DNA of 64,000 bases from a virus. Below the pieces are notes generated by a model. It was not told the DNA's origin and made no database searches. It saw nothing but the letters and a program-made list of their open reading frames with translations. The translations under genes were made by a program, and so were the position numbers. Position 1 is the stretch's first letter. Each line of letters starts with the position of its first letter. The stretch is from IMG/VR virus record IMGVR_UViG_3300035698_011365, positions 9,674 to 73,673 of that record, one strand, 5' to 3'. Positions 8,074 through 36,713 of this stretch are shown here, in pieces.

Positions 8074-11000
8074 TGGCCATTCTAGGTAGATGGACAGCAG
8101 GAACAACCACGCTAGACCCGACTACAAGTTGGGCCGCTCCCGCTAGTCTATTCACTACTCAAGCCAGAAACGATAGCTCCACATATACGTACACTGCCGC
8201 TACTTCCTTGATAGCTTTGCCGACACCTGTTGTTGCGGATGGTTACTTATTAAGAGCATCATTTGAGTACGAAGATACCAGTAATGGTCGTCTTAACCCT
8301 GTTGGTCGATTTATTCAAGCAAGTGGTACTGGCAACTTTGTTAGTCAAACCGTATCTGGATATAACCGTGACACCTCAGAAGACAGATCGTATGTCCAAG
8401 TAACGGCTGTTGTTGATAGCCCGTCAGATGGTGCAACATTCCAGTTCCAATGGAAGCGTGATAGTGATGCTCCTACAGGCGGTACGGTTGATAGTGTTAT
8501 TGAAATCATACCGCTGTATTACTCCAATATTGGTATGTACAGCACTTCCACGAATACAAGCTTTGCTACGATCACGAAAACGCAAGTGCCTGTTACTTCG
8601 GTGTATCAATCTGATACTGCGGCGATTGAGGTTTCCGGTGGTGTTGTAACGATCAAAAGCGACAATAAGAAATACCTGATTATTGGCGGTGTTTATGGTG
8701 AGGGTTATGCCGATGGTTCTCGTACTCAAAGGCTGATGGGTCTTGAATACGATGGTGTGTTTGATCATTCAACAAAAGGCTACATGTATTGCCGTAATTC
8801 TGCGAACGCGATGAACGGTGCGCTATGTTGGGATATTAAAGAACGTGTTACAACGGACATTGCTATTGAGCTACAAGCTTGGTGTGCTGATAGTCAAACG
8901 TATGCTTCTGATAATGGTGCTTCTGATAACTTGGGACAAGCTCCTACTCTGTCCGCGCATAGTTTAGTTGTTATCGAACTTAATGACGATGCCGAAGCGT
9001 TTAAGACTTACGATAGTACAGGGCTTCAAAATGCCGCTTCATTGACTGATTTGAATGTGGTTCGTGATACTTCATTTGCTGATGCTGCTTCATTCGTAAA
9101 ATCAAGCAATACGGGTATGAATTGCGAAGTCTCTATGGATGGCTTCTTCGGTGGTACGGTTTATAATGCCCGTTACTCTACAACAGGTTTAAGAGAGACA
9201 GTAAAAACCCACATCACTGTTGATGGTGTTGAAGATGTAACAACGAAAGATGGTAGTTATTCTCGTGGTTTGCAATCCACAACATCTACGTATGCGGGTG
9301 GTAGTAATCCCGGTGGTTTCATTGCGATAACAGCCGACGAAGATGTTGGTATAAGTCACCAACGTATTACAGGTGGTGAAGCAGGAACGGGGCGAACAGG
9401 TGCAGGCGCTGTTGGCCTTTGGGGTCTTAACCTTGATACTCTTGAAGATGCTGGTGGTGGTGGCCCACAAACCCTAAATGCTACTGGTTTCGCTGTTCCC
9501 CTGCTTTTTGGTACTGCTACTATTACAGTTGCCACAGATGTAGAAATGGTACTTGGTTCAGCAACACCCGGAGGAACTACTTCTAGGCTTACTGGATTAA
9601 CAGGGACATTTAGTGGTGGACGTATTGAAGAGACTGCTGCACAAAACCCTTCAACAACTACAGTTGATGTTGCTTCAGACGGACATCGTGAGGATGTTTG
9701 GTCAATCCAGTTTACAGGTAATGCTGAAGCTGGAGCAGATTATGAATTCCGTGCCCTGTACGGAGCTGATCTTGTCCCAGACACTGTAACAAATACCCCT
9801 ACTGTTACTAATGCAGCTGCAACAGATCAAGATTTAAGCTCCACCTCCTTAGCTATATCAATAGCGGTAGGAACAGCTACTTTATCTGTAGGATCGGTTA
9901 GTTTAGCTGCTTCAAGTATATCAATACCTATAGTGATTGGGTCTGGTACTCTAACAGAAGGAGCAGTGTCCCTTGCCTCTTCTTCTGCTGCCATTCCTAT
10001 TGCTATTGGAGATGCGTCACTAAGTACAGGAGTCCTTGCCCTTAGCTCCTCATCTGTGATCTCGCCCATTGCAGTTGGTGACGCATCGCTAACACTCGGA
10101 GCTGTCAACCTAAGCGCAACATCACTGGAAATTCCTATAGTGATGGGAGACGCCTCTGCAGTATATGGCGCTTTATCTATATCAGCCACAAGTATAGATA
10201 TAAATATAAGCATAGGAGATGGCGGCTTAACAGTAAGTGGTGGAGTTGAGTTAACAACATCAAGCCTATTAATTCCTATTACCGTTGGTACTGGTAATAT
10301 ATATGCGGCGCCACAGAATTTATCCAGTAGTTCAGTATTAATTCCTATTTCTATAGGAACTGCTGATTACACCCTAGGAACGACTTCATTATCTTCCAGT
10401 AGCTTAACAATTCCAATAGCAATGGGTGATGGGAGCATTACAGTTGGTGGAGTGAACCTTTCAGGTTCCTCTGAAACAATTCCTATTGTTGTTGGTGATG
10501 GTTCTATAGATTTGGGAACCACAATATTAAATACATCTAGTGTAGAAATACCTATTGCAGTTGGCGGTGCAGCTATTGCGGCCGGAGATGGTGTATTAAA
10601 TGCTTTCTCTGTAACCCAAGTAATTACTGTTGGTGATGCGACCCTTGTTCAGGGTGATAACACACTCTCAGCAACCTCTGTAACCATGGATATAAATATT
10701 GGAGATGCTACTCTATCCAGCTCACTTACGTTATCAGCGACAAGTGTAGAGATTCCTATAGTATTTGGTTCAGCTGCTTTAGATCTTGGGGATGGGAGCC
10801 TTAATGCTTCCAGTGTAACTATTGATGTTTCCATGGGTGATGCGACCATAAGCGCAACTCCTATTAGTATATCTGGAGCAACCTCTTTAGAAATTCCGAT
10901 TATTCCTGGAGATGCAAATATAAACCTAGGTACACTAGGATTAGTAGCATCCTCTGCAGATATATCAGTTGAAGTAGGAAATGCCGGTATAACTGTAGGA

Positions 11001-14462: not shown

Positions 14463-15164
14463 ATGCTACTTTCAGAAATCTTTGACCAGCTAACGTATGG
14501 TGAATTAAAGCAACTAGATATGGGTGGTGATGATGGTGGAGCTATAGATCAGAAAGATTATCCTCAAGTTGTTGCGCATGTTAACCTAGGTTTAACAGAA
14601 CTCTATAAACGATTTCCTATTAAAATGAGAACAGTAACAATTGAACAAGATGCTTCTATTGGGACTTACTTTTTAGATTCTACTTTTTCTGCGGTGGATG
14701 GAACAGCAAGCACCCTGTATCTAATAGATACTGTTGCTGATCGGTTTATAGATAATGTTTTAAAAGTAGAGAAAATCCGAGATGTAGACGGAGATCTACT
14801 GGATTTTAATGATGCTAACAGTATTACCTCCATTAATACTTATGATTATAATGCGATATCTATTCCTAACCCAGTTACCGGTACATTCATTAGTGTAGAG
14901 TACCGTGCAGATCATGATCCAATTTCACCAATTGAATTAGATCCAACAACTGTAGAAGTGAAGCTACCAAGAAGTCTACTTGCAAGCTTACTTCAGTATG
15001 TAGGCTATAGGGCGTATGCTACGACTCCACCTATTGATGGAGTTGACAGATCAGGGCAATATCTAGCTAAATTTGAGGCTGGACTCACAAAACTTGTTAA
15101 CCTTGATCTTATCAACGATGTTGAGAAAGAGAATCAGAAGCTGTGGAATAATGGATGGCCGTAA
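14463..15164 (+). CDS. Head-tail adaptor (N4 gp67-like)
   Basis: LTYGEL, VNLGLTELYKRF, C-terminal NGW; synteny. Confidence 0.8.
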   Translation: MLLSEIFDQLTYGELKQLDMGGDDGGAIDQKDYPQVVAHVNLGLTELYKRFPIKMRTVTIEQDASIGTYFLDSTFSAVDGTASTLYLIDTVADRFIDNVLKVEKIRDVDGDLLDFNDANSITSINTYDYNAISIPNPVTGTFISVEYRADHDPISPIELDPTTVEVKLPRSLLASLLQYVGYRAYATTPPIDGVDRSGQYLAKFEAGLTKLVNLDLINDVEKENQKLWNNGWP

Positions 15165-18100
15165 CCCCTAAAACCTCCAACGTCGGAGGTGTTCAAATAC
15201 ATGTTGATGCTGCCTATAATAATATTAAACAGGTAGCAGATAACCTAGAAGCATTACTAGCCTTAGAAAACTACTTCAGTAATATGAATGGAATTTATCT
15301 AGGGGAGTTTGCTTCTGCTCCTTCATTGAGAGGAGATACAACTGCTCTGCAGAATGGTGATCATTATTTTAATACTGATAACACCATTATGTACACTTAT
15401 TTAGATTCTGCTTGGATTTATAGTCCGGTGTTTTACACACAAGCTGCTTTAAACACTGCAGTAGGAGCAGGCCCCTTTCATACTTGGGTTGCTTATGCAG
15501 ATGATAACATCGGTACCGGTATATCAGAACAACCGGGAAGTAGAGAATATATAGGTTTTGCTTTAGGTAATTCAGTTGCTGCAGTTAGTATTTTAGATCC
15601 AGATATATTTAATTGGTCTAAGATCACCGGAGCTGACGGCATTGATGGTGTCGACGGCGCTGACGGTGCGCAAGGAATCCAAGGCGACGCAGGAGCCGCT
15701 GGGTTAGATGGAGCAGACGGAAGTGACGGAGCTAAAGGTGATCAGGGTGATCAAGGAATAAAAGGTGATACTGGAGACACGGGGGCTACCGGAGCCGCAG
15801 GCGGAACCGGTGCAACCGGTTCGCCGGGTATAACAGGAGATACGGGCCCTAAAGGGGATATCGGCTTAACTGGTTCTACTGGTTTAACAGGCCCTGCCGG
15901 AACTGATGGAGCTGATGGAGCAACAGGGCCTGCGGGTTCTGCAGGTGCTAAAGGTGATAAAGGTGATACTGGGTCTCAAGGAATCACTGGTGCAACAGGT
16001 CTCACAGGAGATAACGGAATTCCAGGGACTGCAGGCTTAAGCGGAATAGCTGGCCCTGCAGGAGCAACAGGTTCTAAGGGAGACAAAGGTGACACAGGGT
16101 TAACTGGGTCTACTGGTGCAGCAGGGATCGATGGAATAGACGGATCTGATGGCACAAATGGAACTAATGGAAGTACAGGAGCTACAGGAGCTACAGGTAC
16201 TACTGGCCCAACTGGGGCTAAAGGAGATACCGGAAGTACTGGTGCTACTGGTGCTGGAGGTTCAACTGGAGCTCAAGGCCCTCAAGGAATTCAGGGATTA
16301 ACTGGAGATACCGGAGCCCAAGGAATTAAGGGAGATAAAGGAGACACTGGTGATGCAGGAGCAGATGGTTCTGATGGAAATGTAGTTATACAAACTCCTG
16401 TAGAACCTTCAAGTATATCTGTATATCCTTTAAGCGAATCTATAAGAATTACATGGTCTGTACCTAATTACTCAGGGCACTGGTACACTAAAATATACAG
16501 AACCACATGGGATGGCATTACTCCCCCGACTTTTGATGAAGGAGACTTCCTGCAGTCAGTACAGGGAGATTACTTTGACTACGCCGTAACTCCGGATACT
16601 GATTATTATTATTGGCTTAAACATGTTAATTTAGATGGAACAGAGTCTACTGTAAGTGGGGGCAACGGAACCAAAACACTAATAGGTGTCTCAGATGATA
16701 TTGATTGGGTCACTCTATCTAATTTAGATGCAGTTTTAGAAGCTAGATTAAATCAAATAGATACAACATTGATTGATGGTGAAGCAGGCTTATTAGGGGC
16801 TATGGCAGCTATAAGAGGTGAATATGATATTCTTGACGCTGCTTTTGCTGATGTTGAGGATGATTTGATAGATGCATCAACAGGGTTATATAAACAGTTC
16901 AGTGATCTAAGTGAAGCTTATACCATTACCGCAGGAGTTGTCGGAGACAACAGTGCCGGACTTGTTTTTGATGTAGGAGCTCAAGGAGCTCACTTCTTCT
17001 TTAAAACCAATGTGAATGGGCATATAGCAGGTTATGGGTTATCTAATACACTTAACGAAGAGGGTAATGCTACAGCTCAATTTGCTGTTTTAGCTGATGA
17101 GTTTATAGTAGCGCACCCAGATAATACAGAGACTGTTCCATTTTATATATCTGGAGGAGTAACATATCTTACTGAAGCCTTTGTTAAAGAGTTAACTGCT
17201 AATAAAATAATTGCAGGTACTGTAGCCGCAAGCCAAATATATATTGGATCAGATCTCTTTGAACTTAAGGGAGATGTGAACTCTGAATCTAAAGGTGCGT
17301 TAATTATTCAGAATGTGGCCAAGACTACTGAGTTAGTTAGATTGGGTTATTCTGCAGATGGGGCCAGTGTAGGTCTCTTCTTAAAAGATCATGCCGGTAC
17401 AGATATTTTCACCGCAGGTACGACACTCGCAGGAGATATGTTAAACTCCGGAACGATATGGGCTGATGTATCAGGCACAACTGATGCTCCAGATGATAAC
17501 GCTACAAGAGATGTTTACCAAGGTAACTATGATGCTGGAACAGCATATATTGTAGGCGACACTGTTTTAGAGTCTGGTAACATATATAGAAATATTTTAG
17601 CCTCGACAGGTAATACACCGCCTAATGGGACATACTGGACGCTATTTATTACAGGTGGATTATTTAAAGATATTAAGTTTAAAGCAAGCGCCGCTGTACC
17701 AAGCACTCCTACAGGTGCTTCTCCGGTTGACTGGACAGATCATGTACCAGCAACAGGCGGAACAGTGTTCCAGTCATTCGCCCTTAAAGATCAAAATGGT
17801 TCTGTTATCGGGGCTTGGTCAACACCTACAGTATATATTGGTAGATTTAAGGGTGCGTACAGTGGTGGTACGGATTATTTCTTAGGAGACAGTGTAACGC
17901 AAGGAGGCTCGACATATATTTGTTTAGATGAAACTACTGATGGTATCTCTGGACAAGCCCCACCAACGGGAGCAGGAAGTAATACATATTGGGATCCTTT
18001 AGCTATTAAAGGCGATCAAGGTGATGAGCCAACGACATTTAATGAAACATTAACATGGTCTTCAGGAGCAAACCTAAATCTGAGAGATCAAGCAGATATT

Positions 18101-18778
18101 CTTGGTTATGATGGTGTCGGTGATGCAACATTTGCAGTAACAGTATCTGCAGACATTATATCAAGTACCACTGCTAGTGCTGCTATTGATACAGGAAGCT
18201 GGCCGGGAGTTACTCTTGATCTTGATATTATCGTAAATTCCGGTGTCGTTGTAAGAGGACGAGGGGGTAACGGGGGTGCGGGTGGTAATGGAGATATTAC
18301 AGGTAATGGTGGTGGAGCTGGTGGTATCGGTATCAAACTTAACGAAGATTGTAATATTTCTCTTGGTTCTACAGCTCGTGTCTCCGGTGGAGCAGGAGGA
18401 GGCGGCGGCGGAGGTGGTTATGAAGATCCTGAAGGTGCTGGTGTTGGTTATGGTGGCGGAGGAGGAGGAGGTTGGCCTCTAGGAGCTGCAGGTAATGGCC
18501 CGGGAAGTGCTACTAACGGTACAGCAGGTACTGCAACAGAAGGCGGTGCTAATGGTACTGGCTTTAATTTCGGTGGTAATGGTGGTGCAGGTGGTGACAG
18601 AATATCCACATACAGCCCTGAAGCAGGAACAAATGGTGTAACAGGAGCAGCAGGTGATCCGAACACCAATAGCGGCGGGCCGGGAGGCGCTGAAGGTGAC
18701 GCTATTGATAAAAATGGGTATTCGTGTACTATATCCGGTGCAGGCTCATCAAATACATATGATGTAGTTTCAACTTAA
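15155..18778 (+). CDS. Tail fibre: collagen shaft, FN3, J-like region, CBM5/12-like repeats, gp38-like Gly-rich tip
   Basis: 83 GXY triplets; YYYWLKHVN; NGHIAGYGL..FAVLADEF; Y.VGDTV...G..Y twice; VRGRGGNGG poly-Gly tip. Confidence 0.85.
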   Translation: MAVTPKTSNVGGVQIHVDAAYNNIKQVADNLEALLALENYFSNMNGIYLGEFASAPSLRGDTTALQNGDHYFNTDNTIMYTYLDSAWIYSPVFYTQAALNTAVGAGPFHTWVAYADDNIGTGISEQPGSREYIGFALGNSVAAVSILDPDIFNWSKITGADGIDGVDGADGAQGIQGDAGAAGLDGADGSDGAKGDQGDQGIKGDTGDTGATGAAGGTGATGSPGITGDTGPKGDIGLTGSTGLTGPAGTDGADGATGPAGSAGAKGDKGDTGSQGITGATGLTGDNGIPGTAGLSGIAGPAGATGSKGDKGDTGLTGSTGAAGIDGIDGSDGTNGTNGSTGATGATGTTGPTGAKGDTGSTGATGAGGSTGAQGPQGIQGLTGDTGAQGIKGDKGDTGDAGADGSDGNVVIQTPVEPSSISVYPLSESIRITWSVPNYSGHWYTKIYRTTWDGITPPTFDEGDFLQSVQGDYFDYAVTPDTDYYYWLKHVNLDGTESTVSGGNGTKTLIGVSDDIDWVTLSNLDAVLEARLNQIDTTLIDGEAGLLGAMAAIRGEYDILDAAFADVEDDLIDASTGLYKQFSDLSEAYTITAGVVGDNSAGLVFDVGAQGAHFFFKTNVNGHIAGYGLSNTLNEEGNATAQFAVLADEFIVAHPDNTETVPFYISGGVTYLTEAFVKELTANKIIAGTVAASQIYIGSDLFELKGDVNSESKGALIIQNVAKTTELVRLGYSADGASVGLFLKDHAGTDIFTAGTTLAGDMLNSGTIWADVSGTTDAPDDNATRDVYQGNYDAGTAYIVGDTVLESGNIYRNILASTGNTPPNGTYWTLFITGGLFKDIKFKASAAVPSTPTGASPVDWTDHVPATGGTVFQSFALKDQNGSVIGAWSTPTVYIGRFKGAYSGGTDYFLGDSVTQGGSTYICLDETTDGISGQAPPTGAGSNTYWDPLAIKGDQGDEPTTFNETLTWSSGANLNLRDQADILGYDGVGDATFAVTVSADIISSTTASAAIDTGSWPGVTLDLDIIVNSGVVVRGRGGNGGAGGNGDITGNGGGAGGIGIKLNEDCNISLGSTARVSGGAGGGGGGGGYEDPEGAGVGYGGGGGGGWPLGAAGNGPGSATNGTAGTATEGGANGTGFNFGGNGGAGGDRISTYSPEAGTNGVTGAAGDPNTNSGGPGGAEGDAIDKNGYSCTISGAGSSNTYDVVST
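15629..16375 (+). repeat. Collagen-like (Gly-X-Y)83
   Basis: 83 uninterrupted triplets, counted by hand. Confidence 0.95.
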
Positions 18779-22386: not shown

Positions 22387-24564
22387 ATGGATATTCTAGA
22401 AAAAGCCGAAGATGTGGGTAAAGAGGGGTTCTCTGGAGATGAGAGCAAAGCCCTTACAGATTGGGCTAATGAGCCTACTGTAGCCGATCTTAAGATGGAT
22501 CTTACCGATGCTAAGAGTGATGTAGATGATCACATCAGCAAAGTAGATACATGGCTTGAGAATCTGAACATAACCGGTCAGGCTGTTGTAAATAACGGTA
22601 AGACCCGGTCAAGTATTGTTCCTAAGCTTATCCGTAAACAAGCTGAGTGGAGATATGCTTCTCTATCTGAACCTTTTCTAAGTACAGCAGATGTATTCAA
22701 TGTAGATCCAGTAACGTATGAAGATAAACAAGCCGCCTATCAAAATGCCCTTATTCTTAATAACCAGTTTAATACTAAAATAGATAAAGTACGTTTTATT
22801 GATGAATATATCCGTACAGCAGTGGATGAAGGTACTGTTATCGTCAGGACTGGATGGGAATTTGAAGAAGGTGAAGTAGAAGAAGAAGTTGCTGATTGGG
22901 ATTACGAAGTAACAGAAGATCCTAAGCAAGCTCAAGAAGTAATGCAGCAAGTACAACAGTTCCAGGAGAATCCTCAAATGCTTGAGGAACTCCCAGAAGA
23001 AATGAAAAGAGCTGTAGAACTAACCCAAGAAAACGGGATGCCTATTGTTCCTGTTCAAGTTGGTTCGCATATGGAAACACGTAATAGGACTATTAAGAAC
23101 CATCCAACTGTTGAAATATGTAATTACAAGAATATCGTTATTGATCCTACCTGTATGGGGGATCTAGATAAAGCAAGCTTTATGTCATATAGCTTCGAAA
23201 GTTCTAAAGCAGAGCTTAAGAGGGATGGCAAATATTCGAATCTAGATAAGATAGTAGTTGATGCTAATTCAGTATTAGCAACACCAGACCACCAAACCAA
23301 TGATGAAAGTAATTTTGCTTTCCGGGATGAGCCTAGAAAGAAAGTAGTAGTCTATGAATATTGGGGTTATTGGGATATCGACGGAGAAGGTGTAGTAGTT
23401 CCTGTTGTTGCTGCATGGATCGGTGACACTATGATTCGATTGGATAAGAATCCATTTCCAGATAAGAAGATTCCATTTGTAACTGCTCAGTACCTACCGG
23501 TACGTAGATCTATCTATGGTGAACCAGATGGTGAGCTTTTAGAAGACAACCAGAAGATTGTAGGTGCCGTTACTCGTGGTATGATCGATATCATGGGTAG
23601 AAGCGCCAATGGCCAACAGGGAGTGCGTAAAGACGCTCTGGACGTTACAAACAAGCGTAAGTTTGATAACGGCGATGATTACGAGTTTAATAGCGGTATG
23701 AACGCTAAAGACGCTTTTTATATGCATACATATCCTGAGATTCCTCAATCAGCTCAGTTTATGCTGGGAATGCAGAACAACGAAGCTGAAAGCCTTACCG
23801 GTGTCAAAGCTTTCTCAGGGCCTTCAGGCCTAACAGGACAAGCCCTAGGAGATAGTGTAGGTGGTATTAAATCAGCTATGGATGCTGCTTCTAAAAGAGA
23901 GCTTGGAATTCTAAGAAGGCTTTCTGCAGGTATCAACGAAATAGGTCGTAAGATCATTGCTATGAATGGTGCATGGCTCGAAGAAGATGAAGTAGTTCGT
24001 ATTACGAATGAAGAGTTTGTACCAATCAGTAAAGATGATCTAGAAGGTAACTTTGATTTAAGACTGTCCATAAGTACTCCTGAAGCAGATGAAGCTAAAG
24101 CTAAAGAATTAGCATTTATGCTTCAAACCACAGGACAAACTATGGGCCCAGAATTTAGTCAGATTATATTATCTGATATAGCCAAATTACGTAAGATGCC
24201 TGAATTAGCTGCTAAGATTAAGGATTTTGCTCCACAACCTAATCCTATCGAGCAGAAGAAAGCAGAACTAGAAGTAGCTCTGTTAGAGGCTCAAATCGAA
24301 ACTGAAAAATCCAAAGCTAGAGAGAACAATGCTGAAGCTGGGCTTGATGAAGCCAAGACAAGTAATATCAATAGTGATACGGATCTAAAAGATCTAGACT
24401 TCCTTGAACAGGAGTCAGGAACCAAGCAGGAGAGAGACCTGCAGAAGCAAGACCGAGGAGCTCAAGCAAATATGGACAGTAAACTAGTAGATCACGAACT
24501 AAATAAAGATATTAAACGTGAAGAAGCTAAGTTTGCCGGAAATACTTCGAGTAATTCTCAGTAA
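22387..24564 (+). CDS. Portal protein (N4 gp59-like)
   Basis: LTDW.NEP, PKLIRKQAEWRY, YGEPDGELLEDNQ, AASKRE. Confidence 0.95.
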   Translation: MDILEKAEDVGKEGFSGDESKALTDWANEPTVADLKMDLTDAKSDVDDHISKVDTWLENLNITGQAVVNNGKTRSSIVPKLIRKQAEWRYASLSEPFLSTADVFNVDPVTYEDKQAAYQNALILNNQFNTKIDKVRFIDEYIRTAVDEGTVIVRTGWEFEEGEVEEEVADWDYEVTEDPKQAQEVMQQVQQFQENPQMLEELPEEMKRAVELTQENGMPIVPVQVGSHMETRNRTIKNHPTVEICNYKNIVIDPTCMGDLDKASFMSYSFESSKAELKRDGKYSNLDKIVVDANSVLATPDHQTNDESNFAFRDEPRKKVVVYEYWGYWDIDGEGVVVPVVAAWIGDTMIRLDKNPFPDKKIPFVTAQYLPVRRSIYGEPDGELLEDNQKIVGAVTRGMIDIMGRSANGQQGVRKDALDVTNKRKFDNGDDYEFNSGMNAKDAFYMHTYPEIPQSAQFMLGMQNNEAESLTGVKAFSGPSGLTGQALGDSVGGIKSAMDAASKRELGILRRLSAGINEIGRKIIAMNGAWLEEDEVVRITNEEFVPISKDDLEGNFDLRLSISTPEADEAKAKELAFMLQTTGQTMGPEFSQIILSDIAKLRKMPELAAKIKDFAPQPNPIEQKKAELEVALLEAQIETEKSKARENNAEAGLDEAKTSNINSDTDLKDLDFLEQESGTKQERDLQKQDRGAQANMDSKLVDHELNKDIKREEAKFAGNTSSNSQ

Positions 24565-28368: not shown

Positions 28369-30702
28369 ATGACCACTATTGCATTAACAGACCTGACTAC
28401 TAAAGACCTCGAAGGTACTGGTATCTTCGATGAATTAATGTACTCAGTAGATCTCCACATCCACAGAGAGTTTAAAGCAAATAGAATTACAGGTAGTGAT
28501 TATGCTAAAGCTTATGAGGGTGCAGTGGGTGTTGTGTTACAGCAATCCATTGCATTCCTTATGGGGAAAGATACAGCTGCTGCACAGACAGACCTATTAG
28601 TAGCTCAGACAGCTACTGAGGCTTTACAAGCTTCTCTGGTAACTGCACAGGTTTCCAAGATGGGTAAAGAAGAGACTCTCATTGATGGACAGATTACAAA
28701 ACTTGAAGCAGATGAAGAGTTAGTGGATCAAACCAAAGCTAACGCCATACTCGAAGGTGTTAACATTCCTATTGAAGGAGCCAACCTTACTAAAGAAGGT
28801 TTGAAGACTCTGGAAGAAACATTACTTGTTACAGCTCAGAAAACCAAACTTGCTGGTGCCGATACAGCCTTGGCAGTGACCCAAGAACTTAAACTAGATG
28901 CTGACATCGCTCTAACAGGGGCACAGCAGACGAAACTAGCCGGAGCTGATACAAACGACGTTGTAGCCGCAACAGCGCTTAAAACAGCTCAGACAGCTAA
29001 TACGACTGCAGAGACTACTAAGATTGATGAAGAGACTGATTTGATTACTGCTCAAACCGGTAAGACAGATGCAGAAGCATCAGTGTCTACACAACAGGCT
29101 CTTAAGATTGTTAAAGATACTCTTCTTGTTGAAGCTCAAACATCTAAAGTAGCTGATGAAGAATTGTTAGTGGTTCAACAAATTCAGAATGCATTAGCAG
29201 AAGAGTCCAAAATAGATAACGAATCTGCTACTGAATTAGTTAAAGCTCTTAATATTGGTGCTGAAACTACTAAGCTTGCCGGTGTAGATACAGTTAATAT
29301 GACGGCTCAAACAGCTAGACTAACAGCAGATACTGCGAAACTTGGTCAAGATGTTCTTGAAAGCCAAGCTCAGGTAACTAAACTATCTGGTGTTGATACT
29401 GCTCTGGTTACAGCCCAAACAGCTAAAATAGGTAAAGATGAGGATCTAATAGATCAAGAGATACTTGTTAAGCAACAGGATGTGTTGGTAGCACAACAAG
29501 AAGTGCTGAACATGGCTCAAGAGGTATTACTATCAACAGCTAAAGTTTCTAAGATGACAGAGGACACTGCACTTGTAGTAGCTCAAACAACTCAGTCAAC
29601 TGCGACATCTGCAAACATTGCTGCAGAGACCCTTAAAACAACTGAAGAAAAAGATCTTCTTGTTCTTGAGCAGACTAAATTAGCAGGCCCAGATACTAAC
29701 TTAGTTAACGCACAGGTATCAAAATTAGGTAAAGACGAAGATCTAGTTGATGCATCAATTACCAAGATGGCTGATGAAGAGTTACTTGTGGTTCAAAAGA
29801 TCGCAGAGAGTGTTGCCCAGACTGCAGCTATTTCTGCTGAAGCAGGCAAGATCGCTGAAGAAGAAGCCCTTCTTACAGCACAAACTGCTAATGTATCTGC
29901 TAAGACAACTACAGAAGCGTCTACTAAACTAAACATAGAAGCAGATACTTCACTTAAAGGAGCTCAACAAACTAAATTAGCAGGAGCAGAGACCAGCTTA
30001 ATTACTGCTCAGATTAGTAAATTAAATGATGAAGAGCTTCTAACAGTACAACAAACAGCTAAGACCTTAGCTGAAGTTGGATTGATCAGTAAAACTGAAG
30101 ACAAGATGGATCAAGAGATCCTCAATATGGTTCAGGAAGTGGCACTCTCCACAGCTAAAGTTGTGAAGATGGGTCATGAGGGAACTGTAATGTTAGCACA
30201 GTCTCTTAAAGTACCTGCTGAGACTGCACTGCTTGAAGCACAAGAGCTCAGAACAGATGCTGAGACTCTGTTGATTGGTGAACAGACTGATAAGACAACT
30301 GCAGAAGAGCTCTTACTAGTACAAGAGAAAACCAATGCAATTACTCAGAACACGTTGATTACAAACCAATCAACTAAAGCTCTTTCTGAAGTGGCTCTAC
30401 TTAATCAGAAAAAAGTATCTGAGGCAGCTCAAACAGTTGATACCACCACTTCAGGAGCTACTGCTCAAGTTGGTGCGGTTGCCGGTGTGATTGGTAAGCA
30501 AAAAGGACTGTACACTGCACAGACAGACGGTTTCGCTAGGGATGCTGAACAGAAGCTCTCTAAGATTATGGCAGACATGTGGGCAGTGGGTGCATCCATT
30601 GAAGGTACAGGCTTTGCTTGGCCGGATGCTTATAACCCTGCAACTACTTCAGGTAATGTTGTTGATGTTCTTAATAAAGCCAAAACAGGAATTGGCGCAT
30701 AG
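28369..30702 (+). CDS. N4 gp54-like structural protein (probable tail tube), greatly elongated
   Basis: GTGIFDELM...EFKANRITGSDY start; GVIGKQKGLY.AQTDGF.RDAE end; long heptad insert. Confidence 0.85.
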   Translation: MTTIALTDLTTKDLEGTGIFDELMYSVDLHIHREFKANRITGSDYAKAYEGAVGVVLQQSIAFLMGKDTAAAQTDLLVAQTATEALQASLVTAQVSKMGKEETLIDGQITKLEADEELVDQTKANAILEGVNIPIEGANLTKEGLKTLEETLLVTAQKTKLAGADTALAVTQELKLDADIALTGAQQTKLAGADTNDVVAATALKTAQTANTTAETTKIDEETDLITAQTGKTDAEASVSTQQALKIVKDTLLVEAQTSKVADEELLVVQQIQNALAEESKIDNESATELVKALNIGAETTKLAGVDTVNMTAQTARLTADTAKLGQDVLESQAQVTKLSGVDTALVTAQTAKIGKDEDLIDQEILVKQQDVLVAQQEVLNMAQEVLLSTAKVSKMTEDTALVVAQTTQSTATSANIAAETLKTTEEKDLLVLEQTKLAGPDTNLVNAQVSKLGKDEDLVDASITKMADEELLVVQKIAESVAQTAAISAEAGKIAEEEALLTAQTANVSAKTTTEASTKLNIEADTSLKGAQQTKLAGAETSLITAQISKLNDEELLTVQQTAKTLAEVGLISKTEDKMDQEILNMVQEVALSTAKVVKMGHEGTVMLAQSLKVPAETALLEAQELRTDAETLLIGEQTDKTTAEELLLVQEKTNAITQNTLITNQSTKALSEVALLNQKKVSEAAQTVDTTTSGATAQVGAVAGVIGKQKGLYTAQTDGFARDAEQKLSKIMADMWAVGASIEGTGFAWPDAYNPATTSGNVVDVLNKAKTGIGA

Positions 30703-32984: not shown

Positions 32985-33713
32985 ATGAAGAATTACATCC
33001 CACCATCTCAGAGCACCTCAACAGGCTTTCAGCCTATGGACTTTAACTTTAGTCCCAATAAGATGAGCTTTGGAGCTAATAAAAATATTTTTGATTCTAG
33101 TAAGTTTCTAGAGGATTTTAGAAGTTCAAGTGCTAGTGCGGGTTTTGGACTCACAGATGCAGTCAATGGTGGAATTGGCGGTGGAACAGCACTTAAGAAC
33201 TTAAGTAGTATGTACACAGGTAATAGTGTTAACTCAGCTGTACAGCCGGGAGCTGGGGGCTTCTCACTTAATCCAAGTAGATCAGATGTTTTTAATCCTT
33301 CAGGTAGTCAAATCAGTAGTATGATTAGACCACCACAAACAGGAGGAGGTAAAGGTTTATTTGGTAGTTTAGCTGATGGCTTCAAAACAGATGGTAAATT
33401 AGACTTTGGTAAAATAAACGCATTTGGTCAATTGGCTATAGGAGGTTTTGGGGCGTATCTTTCTGCTAAACAGCTTGGATTGATGAAGAAACAGTTTGAA
33501 TTCCAGAAGAGCTTTGACAAAACAAACCTTCAGAACTCTGCTCTTGCCTCTAACGTCAATAAAGCAGACAAACAGACAGGACAACTGAACAGAGACTATG
33601 CCGGAGGCATTACCAAAAAGTATAGTAATGGTTTCGATGGTGATGCTTTTGCTGACCTAGGCCCTGCAAAAGGTAGCAGGTCTAACGAAGAGAAGATGAA
33701 AGCAAAAGGTTAA
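32985..33713 (+). CDS. N4 gp52-like ejection protein
   Basis: Gly/Ser-rich; GAYLSAKQLGLMKKQFEFQK; synteny. Confidence 0.7.
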   Translation: MKNYIPPSQSTSTGFQPMDFNFSPNKMSFGANKNIFDSSKFLEDFRSSSASAGFGLTDAVNGGIGGGTALKNLSSMYTGNSVNSAVQPGAGGFSLNPSRSDVFNPSGSQISSMIRPPQTGGGKGLFGSLADGFKTDGKLDFGKINAFGQLAIGGFGAYLSAKQLGLMKKQFEFQKSFDKTNLQNSALASNVNKADKQTGQLNRDYAGGITKKYSNGFDGDAFADLGPAKGSRSNEEKMKAKG

Positions 33714-33731
33714 TCCAAGGAGATAACGCAC

Positions 33732-36713
33732 ATGGCTTATCAACCACTAACATATAGAACAGTAGGGCTCTCAAACTATGGCGGTATCGCTGATGGTATG
33801 AGTGATGCCATTAAAGGCTTTAAATCAAGTGCTACGACTATTACTGATCAACTTGGGGAGATGGAAGCAAACCAAGAGGCAGATACTCTAGCAGCCTTCC
33901 AGAACTCCCTACGTGGACGTAGTGCTGAAGAAACTGAAGCACTTATTAATGATCCAAATCAATTAGGTCAATTCAATCTTGGTTTAGCTGATCAAACAGC
34001 TGTACAGGGTGTACTAGGCAGTGCAGTTGCACAAGCACGTACACAAGATACAGCTAACTTTAATTATGCACGTACACAAGAAGACCAAAGAGATGCTCCT
34101 CTATTAGATGTGCTACGTAATTCAGTACTTGAAGGAAGCACTGATCAAGATGAAGCAGCCTATAAAAGTTATTTAGATAGTGGTGGTACTGTTCGAGGTG
34201 CTTCTGAGATATTTGCAGGTATCAATAAAGAAAAACAAGGGAATATATTAGCTGATCATGAGAGCAGCTTTTTACAGAACAGATATGATACTGCACTGGC
34301 TGAAGGCGGTAACGCTGATGCTGCTGTTGGTAAAGCCGCTGAAAAAGATTACATAGATAAGTATGTTGAATTAAATAACGGAAGTAGAGCAGGTGCTCAA
34401 GATTCTTGGGATAGGGCTCAAGCCAAAGAAAAAGCTAAATATAAAGTTGGTGAAATTGTTCAAGGCGAGTGGGATAAACAACTCAAAACATACGCTATTG
34501 AGTATGAAGCTGAAACCGGTACACAGAAATCACAATTAGATGCTGCAAATAAATTACTAGCTCCTGATAGTGTATTATCTGATGATGAAATAGCAAAACA
34601 ATTAACAGACGTGCTTGTTGCTGCAGACGGTAAATCAGAGGACTGGGGTCTATCAATAAAAAGTTTAATCTCAGATTCTTGGACTAATAAATATGTAGAA
34701 ATTGGCGGGAAAAGGATATCTATTGAAGGTGTTAGACCTGCTGACTTTATGTATGCAGCTCAAGGTGCTGCGGATAAAGGAGATGAAGCTAAATGGTATA
34801 CATTATTTGTATCTGTTGATGGCGAAGTGGATGAAGAGAAATTTAAAGCTGCTTTGGTTCAAAGAGCACGAGATAGGCAAGCAAGCCCTAACGCTGTTGA
34901 TAAAAAAATTGAGAATGCTGCACTACTTGAAAAGTATAACCAGAGAGTTATTGATAAAGAGGCCCATTTTAATGCCAAAAGGCTGCAACTAGAGAATGAT
35001 TATAAAGCTGATACCAGAAACGGTGTCCGTGCTTTTGGTGCTACTACTCCTCAAGGGGTAGCAAATAATCTTAGAAACGGAGCTAATGGTGTTGGTGGAG
35101 ATATTTCTACAGGCACTCCTAGTGGTGTATTAGAGACCCCACCAGCAGCTGTAACAGTTAATACGCCTGAAGCGACTGGAACCGTTATTGAGACTGCTCC
35201 TGCAGTAACTCCTGCAGTAACTCCTGAAATAACCGCAGTAAGAGAGCGATTGTCTGCTCTTGATCAAGCTGCTTTAGATAATCCGTACACCCCGCCTACA
35301 GAAATACCTGCAGAAATAGGTACAGGGATAGAACAGTCAGTTAAGGATGTATCCGATCTTGCAAACACTTTAGATGAGAATTCAAGTCCAGAAGAGGTAG
35401 CAGCAGTTCGGGATCAAGGTAACAAATTAATATCTGACTATGTTGGAGTGGTTGGTACTGATGCTATTAAAAATAGTCTGAGAAAAGACGGAAATGAAAC
35501 CCTTACACGAGCAGATCTTTTGAGAATAGCTACGGATATATTATCAGTAGAAGACAGCCCAATAAAAGATTTACGGGGAGGAAGGGCATTAGTAGAGGAT
35601 AAACCAACTGTTGACTATGTTGTAAGTGAACTTTCAGAAATGGTTGGTGAAGTTGTATCTACTCAAAGAGCAGAAGCTAAATCAGCATCTGATGCTGAGA
35701 ACAAAAGAAAAGCTCTTGTAGAGCAGGTCAAAAATAGTGACAGAACTGCAGGTAGAACTGAAAGAGCAGGCATTCTTTCAGAAGGCAATACTCGTATTGA
35801 ACGAGAGAATACCCTTAACAGTCTCAGAGGAAGTAGAAGAAACCCGAATGGTTTAACCATAGAGCAGGAAGTTCAAAATGAGCGGAGAGCAGCTCAAGAA
35901 GCCCTTTTGACTAATGCTCAAAATCAAGGGGGAGAGCAAAGCTTTTTCTCAGGAATTTTTCCAACTTCTCGGGCTGATCAAGACGCAGCTACTTTATCTA
36001 ATGCAGGATTAGGCCAATATAATCCTGAAGGCACCGCCATACCCACAGAAACAAAGAGTGCTGGTGTGCAGAGAGCAGAGGATCTTGCTAAAATGAGACA
36101 GTTGGGGGAAATTCCTCAACAGCCTGCTGATGACCTAATAAATGGGTCTTCTGGCGATACAGGCCCAATCGATAACTTAAGTGTAAAAGCCACTACTTCA
36201 CGAAGAGCAAAGGAAATCACAGGAGAAGAAGGTAATTTACTGGATGGTGCTAAACCTGATCCGGGGAATGGAGCAAGTAATATTAGTGCAGGTCTTCCCT
36301 ATAAGACTAAACGTATTAAAGATCATATAGGTAAATTATTCAATAAAATAGATGCAGCATCAATTAATATAACAGGCAAGCTTACTGCTGCACAAAGCAC
36401 TAAACTTACAGAGTCTGTAGTTAAACAGACAGAAGGTGAGCTTAAAGGCTATCTGAACAACTGGGGAAAGTTATCAACCTTGGTTCAAGATGTTCTTGTA
36501 GACAAGACTTATAATAAAGGTCTTACAAAATTAGATGAAAAATCTAAGAAATTTGTTGATGCTATTCGTTCAAATAATTTACCTTTAGCTCTATCAGAGA
36601 TGTCTGATAAGTCTCCAAGAGATAAAAGAAATATTAAAAAAATGAAGCAAGCTATATTAGAGTCTGGTGTTGATACTGCACTGGAATCCGGTGTAAATAA
36701 TATAACTGATTAA
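33732..36713 (+). CDS. N4 gp51-like ejection protein with a C-terminal lysozyme-like domain
   Basis: PLTYRTV start; directly before vRNAP; C-terminal EEG...DVLVDKTYNKG...A.SEM. Confidence 0.7.
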   Translation: MAYQPLTYRTVGLSNYGGIADGMSDAIKGFKSSATTITDQLGEMEANQEADTLAAFQNSLRGRSAEETEALINDPNQLGQFNLGLADQTAVQGVLGSAVAQARTQDTANFNYARTQEDQRDAPLLDVLRNSVLEGSTDQDEAAYKSYLDSGGTVRGASEIFAGINKEKQGNILADHESSFLQNRYDTALAEGGNADAAVGKAAEKDYIDKYVELNNGSRAGAQDSWDRAQAKEKAKYKVGEIVQGEWDKQLKTYAIEYEAETGTQKSQLDAANKLLAPDSVLSDDEIAKQLTDVLVAADGKSEDWGLSIKSLISDSWTNKYVEIGGKRISIEGVRPADFMYAAQGAADKGDEAKWYTLFVSVDGEVDEEKFKAALVQRARDRQASPNAVDKKIENAALLEKYNQRVIDKEAHFNAKRLQLENDYKADTRNGVRAFGATTPQGVANNLRNGANGVGGDISTGTPSGVLETPPAAVTVNTPEATGTVIETAPAVTPAVTPEITAVRERLSALDQAALDNPYTPPTEIPAEIGTGIEQSVKDVSDLANTLDENSSPEEVAAVRDQGNKLISDYVGVVGTDAIKNSLRKDGNETLTRADLLRIATDILSVEDSPIKDLRGGRALVEDKPTVDYVVSELSEMVGEVVSTQRAEAKSASDAENKRKALVEQVKNSDRTAGRTERAGILSEGNTRIERENTLNSLRGSRRNPNGLTIEQEVQNERRAAQEALLTNAQNQGGEQSFFSGIFPTSRADQDAATLSNAGLGQYNPEGTAIPTETKSAGVQRAEDLAKMRQLGEIPQQPADDLINGSSGDTGPIDNLSVKATTSRRAKEITGEEGNLLDGAKPDPGNGASNISAGLPYKTKRIKDHIGKLFNKIDAASINITGKLTAAQSTKLTESVVKQTEGELKGYLNNWGKLSTLVQDVLVDKTYNKGLTKLDEKSKKFVDAIRSNNLPLALSEMSDKSPRDKRNIKKMKQAILESGVDTALESGVNNITD

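Follow-up and report, generated by a model that had tools for sequence, protein, structure and literature searches.

How long can the tail of a podophage be, and what sets its length? Tail length is generally explained by tape-measure proteins, and the podophages are treated as short-tailed viruses of fixed architecture. The question is raised here by one gene in a stretch of 64,000 nucleotides of virus DNA (IMG/VR record IMGVR_UViG_3300035698_011365, positions 9,674 to 73,673), which was analysed at its full length and is referred to below as the window. This gene, at 28369–30702, specifies a 777-amino acid (aa) protein related at both ends to the tail-tube protein gp54 of phage N4, and is about 2.5 times the usual length for that family and 2.6-fold that of N4. 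The source record is the complete 73.7-kb genome of an uncultivated virus, assembled from a metagenome and possessing terminal repeats. With its giant virion RNA polymerase and N4-type structural gene order, the window phage is a member of the Schitoviridae (N4-like viruses).

The explanation which we favour, by a narrow balance of probability, is that schitoviruses are able to build a long tail from one ring of twelve long helices, the count of 14-residue repeats acting as a digital code for its length. This count would have been retuned at least three to four times (168–971 aa, roughly 15 to >100 nm), and the neck fibres would have changed in compensation; on this view the window phage is predicted to be a “podovirus” whose tail, at ~80–100 nm, is of siphovirus length. 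The tube family itself is known. What is new here is the degree of expansion, the “ruler” logic of the repeat count and the coupled change in the fibre; a full-text literature search surfaced no paper on length variation or repeat architecture of the Schitoviridae tube.

Identity of the 777-amino acid protein

The initial annotation of this stretch, made from its letters, had read gp54-type conserved termini at the two ends of the protein, and had stated that cryo-electron microscopy (cryo-EM) assigns this position to the helical tail tube. Both statements hold, the literature describing a dodecameric tube. PHROG 2050 is matched with an E value of 1e-42, its 303-position profile being split across both ends of the query. 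A sequence search of the PDB returned four proteins only, all of them Schitoviridae tail tubes (E 1e-21 to 1e-24): DEV gp75 (9BGM, 321 aa), N4 Gp54 (9LC0/9YF4, 299 aa), B2 Gp34 (9D83, 206 aa) and the Moo19 tail protein (9D80, 279 aa). These alignments cover residues 4–113/120 and 646/662–758/777 of the query. When an AlphaFold model built on a multiple sequence alignment (MSA) was compared with the PDB by Foldseek, ranks 1 to 6 were Schitoviridae tube chains, and in VIA-align the model residues 1–126/135 fit the proximal tube of B2 and DEV with a root-mean-square deviation (rmsd) of 5.8–6.9 Å (Z 9.3–10.4). The gene lies between the gp55-like and the plug (gp53-like) genes, in the order of N4 gp59–gp50. 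By sequence, synteny and fold, the open reading frame (ORF) at 28369–30702 is confirmed as an orthologue of the Schitoviridae tail-tube protein. A role as tape measure was considered and rejected, since the protein is homologous to the tube itself.

The N-terminal domain is 44–64% identical to its orthologues, and G16, G18, F20 and D21 are invariant in the alignments. At the other end the motif GKQKxLYxAQxxGFxRDAEQKxxKI, of which the part from GKQK to DAEQK occupies residues 709–729, falls in columns that are nearly invariant in alignments A1–A3. The C-terminal domain aligns to the C-termini of the DEV, N4 and B2 proteins and, from the topology of DEV, is predicted to lie distally. At 777 aa the protein is outside the typical tube length of ~200–330 aa, the family range being 168–971 aa, and length is hardly a defining feature of the tail-tube family.

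Repeats of the central region

Between the conserved ends lie ~635 residues (66–700) with only three prolines, at 134, 441 and 616. This region is rich in Ala, Thr, Leu, Glu and Gln, is net acidic (53 Lys plus Arg vs 100 Asp plus Glu), and is all-helical in the AlphaFold2 (AF2) models. Its hydrophobic residues recur with a period of 7.08 residues at a normalised power of 45.1, vs a mean of 5.4 and a maximum of 13.0 in 1000 shuffles. BLOSUM autocorrelation peaks at a lag of 14 (z 12.8) and stays phase-coherent past a lag of 300. The repeated unit is roughly [DE]-x-x-L-[LI]-V-x-A-Q-x-x-K-[LIM]-x, and alignments of the family give a consensus of the same pattern, LxxxQxxKxxxExx; the DEV wall region is also periodic, at ~7.0. 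We had considered the period of 7.08 as a signature of a 12-helix barrel, an idea which was dropped because the relatives range from 6.98 to 7.18.

Register tracking reveals a single heptad frame from ~70 to 690 with five +1 skips and no jump at the predicted helix breaks. The heptad profile, h-h-h-s-p-p-s, comprises three consecutive hydrophobic, two small and two polar positions; such an apolar arc is wider than the classical a/d stripe and, as read from the sequence profile, would fit a helix with two neighbours.

The motif TKLAG occurs five times (at 159, 188, 301, 436 and 535), with TKLSG at 337, and E.LNM.QEV.LSTAKV.KM twice (at 378 and 583). In window-wise Smith-Waterman comparisons, 70-aa windows reach z values of up to 12.8 over shuffles. 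A blastp self-comparison of the protein gave no off-diagonal matches, and it was the Smith-Waterman windows and the autocorrelation which revealed the duplication. Nearly Pro-free heptads, the two recurring motifs and an internal duplication had all been noted when the stretch was first read, and each is borne out, the last at the protein level; the proposal that the extra length is a repeat expansion of the wall-forming helix is likewise supported by this repeat anatomy.

At the DNA level the repeat copies are 60–73% identical and Tandem Repeats Finder (TRF) detected no tandem array; the expansion is therefore old, and neither a recent slip nor an assembly artefact. The record is a metagenome assembly and repeats can mis-assemble, but a chimera of repeats, or a decaying gene without function, is highly improbable given this divergence of the copies, an open frame with intact register and both conserved termini, a genome that is complete with terminal repeats, and independent contigs which hold orthologues of 610–911 aa with the same anatomy.

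Tube architecture and expected length

The tube of DEV is an all-helical dodecamer of gp75, 330 Å long, with outer and inner diameters of 63 and 36 Å; residues 2–157 adjoin the adaptor, a helix-turn-helix at the N-terminus forms the only adaptor contact, and the authors liken the tube to an upside-down portal barrel (PMC11445570). In N4 it consists of 12 copies of gp54 and is closed by the gp53 plug, the whole tail measuring 45 nm by cryo-EM (PMC13434306). DEV gp74 is the equivalent plug (PMC12892993). Since a hairpin of 321 aa reaches at most ~240 Å vs the 330 Å of the DEV tube, the DEV chain must pass through the tube once, and since its residues 2–157 are proximal, the conserved C-terminal domain would lie at the tip, where the plug binds. 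For this family a tube made of one 12-subunit ring is described, so that subunit length would set tube length (PMC11445570, PMC13434306), which supports the early suggestion that tail length is set by the tube subunit.

The DEV structure scales at 0.103 nm per residue overall, and a straight helix at up to 0.15 nm per residue. At these values 777 aa predict a tube of ~80–100 nm; relative to its closest relatives, the window protein has 474–484 additional residues, equivalent to 50–73 nm. Of the two figures first put on the extra length, 35 nm as a hairpin and 70 nm as one helix, the former is unlikely, because the DEV tube exceeds the hairpin limit given above. Known from its genome alone, the window phage probably has a fully extended tube of 80–100 nm; we infer its oligomeric state, single-pass topology and physical length.

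The assembly that we propose is as follows. Twelve tube subunits would form one ring, as in the solved Schitoviridae tubes, each chain passing once from the adaptor, contacted by the N-terminal domain, to the plug, contacted by the C-terminal domain, while the central helix walls a channel ~3.5 nm wide. In the window lineage the wall-forming helix would have grown from ~130–170 to ~635 residues by repeated duplication of a 14-residue (two-heptad) unit, one continuous register being kept during growth, to give a thin single-ring tube ~6 nm wide and ~80–100 nm long instead of ~25–33 nm. The ruler would be the repeat count in the subunit, and neither a tape measure nor stacked rings. The neck fibres would have kept pace by gaining a collagen triple helix of 252 residues (~72 nm), so that the distal receptor-binding domains stay near the tube tip, where the plug would control the release of both the DNA and the giant RNA polymerase.

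Two neighbouring proteins are of constant size. The plug is 741–788 aa long whatever the tube length, and the gp57-like protein has 403 aa vs 405 aa in N4 and does not scale with the tube. The label “tail length tape measure protein”, which PHROG 2120 and GenBank attach to this gp57-like protein, is probably wrong for the family.

Phage R22Y provides a measured tail. By transmission electron microscopy (TEM) it is 60 ± 5 nm long on a 50-nm head, a tail longer than the head being unusual for a “podovirus”. Its tube orthologue of 398 aa (L123/L124; PP212876, 22591–23787) was found by tblastn, the deposited record being unannotated, and the tail length goes in the predicted direction.

Length variation in the family

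The best 150 representatives drawn from 1.8 billion proteins have a median of 301 aa, and none exceeds 606 aa; orthologues of 455–648 aa came in addition from word-index searches. IMG/VR contains roughly 360 orthologues; 73 complete ones, from a search with a 10-sequence alignment, have 168–971 aa (median 281, 90th percentile 486), and seven of these 73 (~10%) have at least 600 aa: 610, 621 (two contigs), 735, 807, 911 and 971 aa. In six of the seven the expansion consists of heptads, and several carry the QEVLN..QEV.LS.AKV motif of the window protein; the 971-aa orthologue has ~95-aa repeats with GYGYN loops instead of heptads. In a whole-protein search of IMG/VR, no close relative was found. 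Orthologues in cultured phages include those of R22Y (398 aa), V19 (509 aa) and A5 (513 aa) (Alteromonas schitoviruses). The size of ~300 aa given for N4-like homologues thus agrees with the length survey, in which the family median is ~290–315 aa, and the window protein is indeed unusual in length; it is not unique, given the heptad-rich orthologues of 610–911 aa and the one of 971 aa. That it is neither the sole nor the longest example lowers the individual surprise and makes the phenomenon general.

A tree of the major capsid protein needs at least four changes to account for the class of at least 600 aa, and overall such lengths arose at least three to four times. The window clade (98% support) otherwise contains only tubes of 261–303 aa, in phages whose capsid and adaptor proteins are 76% and 50–60% identical to those of the window. 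These nearest relatives keep both tube termini at 56–67% identity and have only ~100–130 central residues, with single copies of SKLAGADT..LVTAQ and ELKLDAE, the motifs which are multiplied in the window protein. Tube-protein length is thus labile, and the window expansion is specific to its lineage.

Three further observations concern other long proteins. In the 971-aa orthologue (L069:3944–6859) and in a 653-aa protein (P0006), each ~95-aa repeat has a non-helical “GYGYN / DGN” loop, a second and structurally different way of enlarging the tube protein. Four long-tube contigs possess an extra ORF of 110–117 aa between the gp55-like and tube genes (L019:3651–3992, L026:3638–3991, L029:3641–3991 and L018:3657–3989), which is absent in the window and in short-tube relatives. 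Lastly, a 749-aa protein from a JGI metagenome (P0004) is a T7 gp11-like “Tail tubular protein” (PF17212) with ~25 near-perfect 14-residue repeats (ETKLITAQELKVD), flanked by two gp11-like N-terminal segments. These repeats closely resemble the window unit, and this unrelated podophage tail protein may employ the same module for helical extension.

The neck fibre

In N4, DEV, Moo19 and B2 the adaptor serves as the anchor for fibres or spikes, and with a fibre anchored there a longer tube demands a longer fibre. The gene following the adaptor gene in the window specifies a collagen-like fibre, the N-terminal motif of which resembles residues 46–70 of N4 gp66. As a triple helix (0.286 nm per residue) its uninterrupted run of 252 collagen-type Gly-X-Y (GXY) residues would extend ~72 nm, in agreement with the ~70-nm shaft given in the initial annotation.

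The fibre's N-terminal domain of 158 aa is common to relatives, with 51–57% identity over the domain and 44–51% across the aligned N-terminal parts. Relatives that share it, with tubes of 255–331 aa, carry 36, 21, 15+12 or 0–12 GXY residues in the corresponding place; the nearest relatives (tubes of 261–303 aa) have 21–36. The gain of 216–231 collagen residues in the window fibre corresponds to 62–66 nm. Tube and collagen shaft would therefore appear, from these sequences, to have been lengthened by about the same physical amount in the window clade.

All five genomes whose tubes reach 600 aa have adaptor-adjacent fibres of 1207–1884 aa, whereas a fibre of at least 1207 aa is found in 1/19 genomes with shorter tubes. 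Among three independent contrasts on the adaptor tree, the fibre follows the tube in two to three and goes in the opposite direction in none. Over all 24 genomes, tube and fibre protein length are weakly correlated (Spearman rho 0.25, p 0.24). The co-variation signal is in the long-tube class and the matched clade and is not a global trend. The survey of tube length against fibre length, suggested when the gene was first described, gave matched gains in the window clade and a weak correlation overall.

Glycine is extremely abundant in the C-terminal part of the window fibre (18200–18778, aa ~1015–1207), which contains many GxG repeats and runs such as GGGGGGGG; elsewhere in the protein, residues 791–826 weakly match CBM5/12. 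A second fibre operon in the window includes a 1215-aa protein (P0160, 8073–11720) without Pfam or PHROG match, which has ~25 tandem 23-residue repeats (S.SL.IPI..G.A.L..G) and, at its C-terminus, six 9-residue “DRTIEIE” repeats. It was considered as a long shaft and rejected, since 25 repeats of 23 aa look like a beta-solenoid of ~12 nm.

Alternative arrangements of the tube

A single-sequence AlphaFold model (pLDDT 44, where pLDDT is the predicted local distance difference test) was too poor for use; the MSA-based monomer (pLDDT 64, predicted TM-score 0.25) was used for secondary structure only and not to choose a topology. Several points weigh against a fully extended tube. This monomer splits the central helix into 7–8 segments at the Gly-containing TKLAGxDT motifs, and residues 439–611 superpose on antiparallel coiled-coil hairpins such as those of EnvC, PcsB and Rad50 (rmsd 3.7–5.9 Å). 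The conserved register is explicable by duplication in heptad multiples alone. With respect to the fibre, the sign test on three contrasts gives p 0.25, three contrasts being unable to reach significance; co-extension is argued from a single event in the window clade; and the short-tube relative G001 (293 aa) has a fibre of 1921 aa, so that the length of the fibre protein is by itself a noisy proxy. As regards measured tails, phiAxp-3 and N4 both have tube proteins of 299 aa, yet 20 nm was reported by TEM for the former vs 45 nm for the whole tail of the latter by cryo-EM; published TEM tail lengths are therefore too noisy for calibration. The paper on A5 (513-aa tube) terms its morphology “typical” podoviral, without measurement.

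The hairpin-like segments lead to a different arrangement, which we consider possible but unlikely, in which the extra helices reverse at TKLAGxDT (or NIPxxG) and pack as hairpins or bundles, leaving a tail of near-normal length. The result would be a thicker-walled or externally decorated tube, with a built-in sheath replacing N4 gp64/gp65. It would account for the breaks with low pLDDT which AF2 places at every TKLAG motif and for the hairpin-like modelling of residues 439–611; seven long helices, being an odd number, would still put the C-terminal domain distally; and no gp65/gp64-like sheath genes are present between the fibre and lysis genes in the window ORF list. The segments are nevertheless unequal (90, 87, 43, 128, 87, 72 and 73 residues) and suit a zigzag poorly, and the heptad register continues through all the breaks, which hairpin loops need not keep. 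Moreover, the monomer deviates from the solved N4 and DEV chains by 56–83 Å rmsd over the homologous 215–281 residues; it thus does not reproduce the assembled conformation, and its fold-backs are probably artefacts of modelling a monomer. Folding back would also leave unexplained the collagen gain of 62–66 nm and the very long fibres of the long-tube genomes.

Weaker heptad amplitude and low pLDDT at ~190–240 and 280–345 could mark joints, and the ~95-aa GYGYN repeats of L069 and P0006 show that this position tolerates modules that are not plain wall. A tube extended only in part, giving a tail of ~45–60 nm with the remaining repeats forming a flexible or distal extension such as a needle-like bundle past the site of the plug or a segment able to collapse, is in our estimation quite improbable. 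The C-terminal domain is conserved and the plug gene unchanged in size, and the collagen gain matches the full tube gain, which favours the fully extended tube.

Gene neighbourhood

The structural genes of the window (Table 1) match the N4 order gp69–gp50 one for one. Among the ejection proteins, the gp52-like protein has a weak PHROG match only and the gp51-like protein was assigned from synteny. When the larger ORFs from 6991 to 47890 were scanned with PHROG and Pfam, none matched a tube, sheath or baseplate family of siphoviruses or myoviruses.

Table 1. Structural genes of the window, with the domains of the tail-tube and neck fibre proteins
Feature	Position	Strand	Evidence or remarks
gp69-like gene and large terminase			Before the head-to-tail adaptor in the N4-type module
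Head-to-tail adaptor, N4 gp67-like, 233 aa	14463..15164	+	PHROG 2125; Pfam SU10_adaptor
Neck fibre, N4 gp66 position, 1207 aa, collagen-like	15155..18778	+	Pfam Collagen E 2.5e-16; tail-fibre PHROGs
Fibre GXY run, 252 residues uninterrupted, aa 159–410	15629..16384	+	
Small genes including lysis genes			Between neck fibre and portal
Portal, gp59-like	22387..24564	+	PHROG 1216; Pfam SU10_portal
gp58-like gene			Among the portal-to-capsid genes, N4 order
gp57-like protein, 403 aa	24952..26163	+	PHROG 2120; databases label “tape measure”
Major capsid protein, 503 aa	26180..27691	+	PHROG 1357; basis of the capsid tree
gp55-like protein, 190 aa	27775..28347	+	PHROG 2130
Tail-tube gene, N4 gp54 / DEV gp75 orthologue, 777 aa	28369..30702	+	ATG start
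N-terminal domain, aa 1–66	28369..28566	+	Predicted head-to-tail-adaptor contact
Central helical repeat region, aa 67–700	28567..30468	+	~45 units of the 14-residue family repeat
C-terminal domain, aa 701–777	30469..30702	+	Predicted distal tip and plug contact
Tail plug, N4 gp53 / DEV gp74-like, 751 aa	30711..32966	+	PHROG 2220; synteny
gp52-like (242 aa) and gp51-like (993 aa) ejection proteins	32985..36713	+	Position; synteny with N4
Virion RNA polymerase, 3719 aa	36731..47890	+	PHROG 2206, 1040 bits

The gp52-like protein (32985–33713) has 242 aa, the short-tube relatives having 171–197 aa and N4 150 aa. The N-termini of N4 gp52 line the tail lumen, and a modest co-variation of gp52 with tube length is conceivable. 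The capsid protein is also longer than that of N4 (503 vs 401 aa); the 356-position PHROG profile spans its residues 1–502, implying an insertion of ~100–150 aa, which is common to the window clade and to the clade of L019, L026 and L029 (500–512 aa).

Comparison with known systems

DEV gp75 (9BGM, 9ZDW, 9ZE4) is like the window protein in its homologous termini (E 1e-24), its helical heptad wall and its gene position upstream of the plug, and the N-terminal 135 residues of the window model fit it with an rmsd of 6.8–6.9 Å. It differs in having 321 aa, ~190 wall residues and a 33-nm tube vs 777 aa and ~635 wall residues, and DEV has no collagen fibre but a long fibre (gp53) together with a receptor-binding fibre mounted at the side. 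N4 gp54 (9LC0, 9YF4, 9YFT) is orthologous in sequence and shares the gp55–gp54–gp53 synteny; unlike the window protein it is 299 aa long, of which ~48 aa form an N-terminal extension, and its tube is surrounded by the gp64/gp65 sheath, genes for which were not observed at the equivalent position of the window. The proteins of Shigella phages B2 (gp34, 206 aa, 9D83) and Moo19 (gp71, 279 aa, 9D80) belong to the same family, so that the solved structures already span a range of lengths. B2 is the best structural match to the window model (Z 10.4, rmsd 5.8 Å over 126 residues). Both stand at the short end of the range and, unlike the window phage, have tailspikes rather than long fibres at the adaptor. 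The cultured phages A5, V19 and R22Y possess orthologues of intermediate length at the same locus, which are shorter than the window protein and have more diverged repeats.

In the tails of siphophages and myophages many stacked hexameric rings of beta-sandwich tube protein surround a tape-measure ruler. The shared outcome would be a long non-contractile DNA conduit of defined length; unlike those tails, the window tail would consist of one ring of 12 long helices serving as its own ruler, if our reading holds. Lumens walled by ~12 supercoiled helices are known from the P22 portal barrel and the 12-helix TolC tunnel, which are ~10–20 nm long. Neither has homology to the window tube, which would measure ~80–100 nm.

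Implications

Were this explanation true, tail length would be readable from sequence and could be predicted for thousands of uncultivated schitoviruses. The 14-residue unit would also offer a natural, tunable module for engineered helical nanotubes. A channel 80–100 nm long and 3.5 nm wide would constitute an extreme test of the translocation of a megadalton virion RNA polymerase and of DNA, since the 3719-residue polymerase must thread through the window tail. For the Schitoviridae themselves, tail length would be an evolvable host-range trait coupled to fibre length, and one which could matter for reaching through capsules, sheaths and exopolymer.

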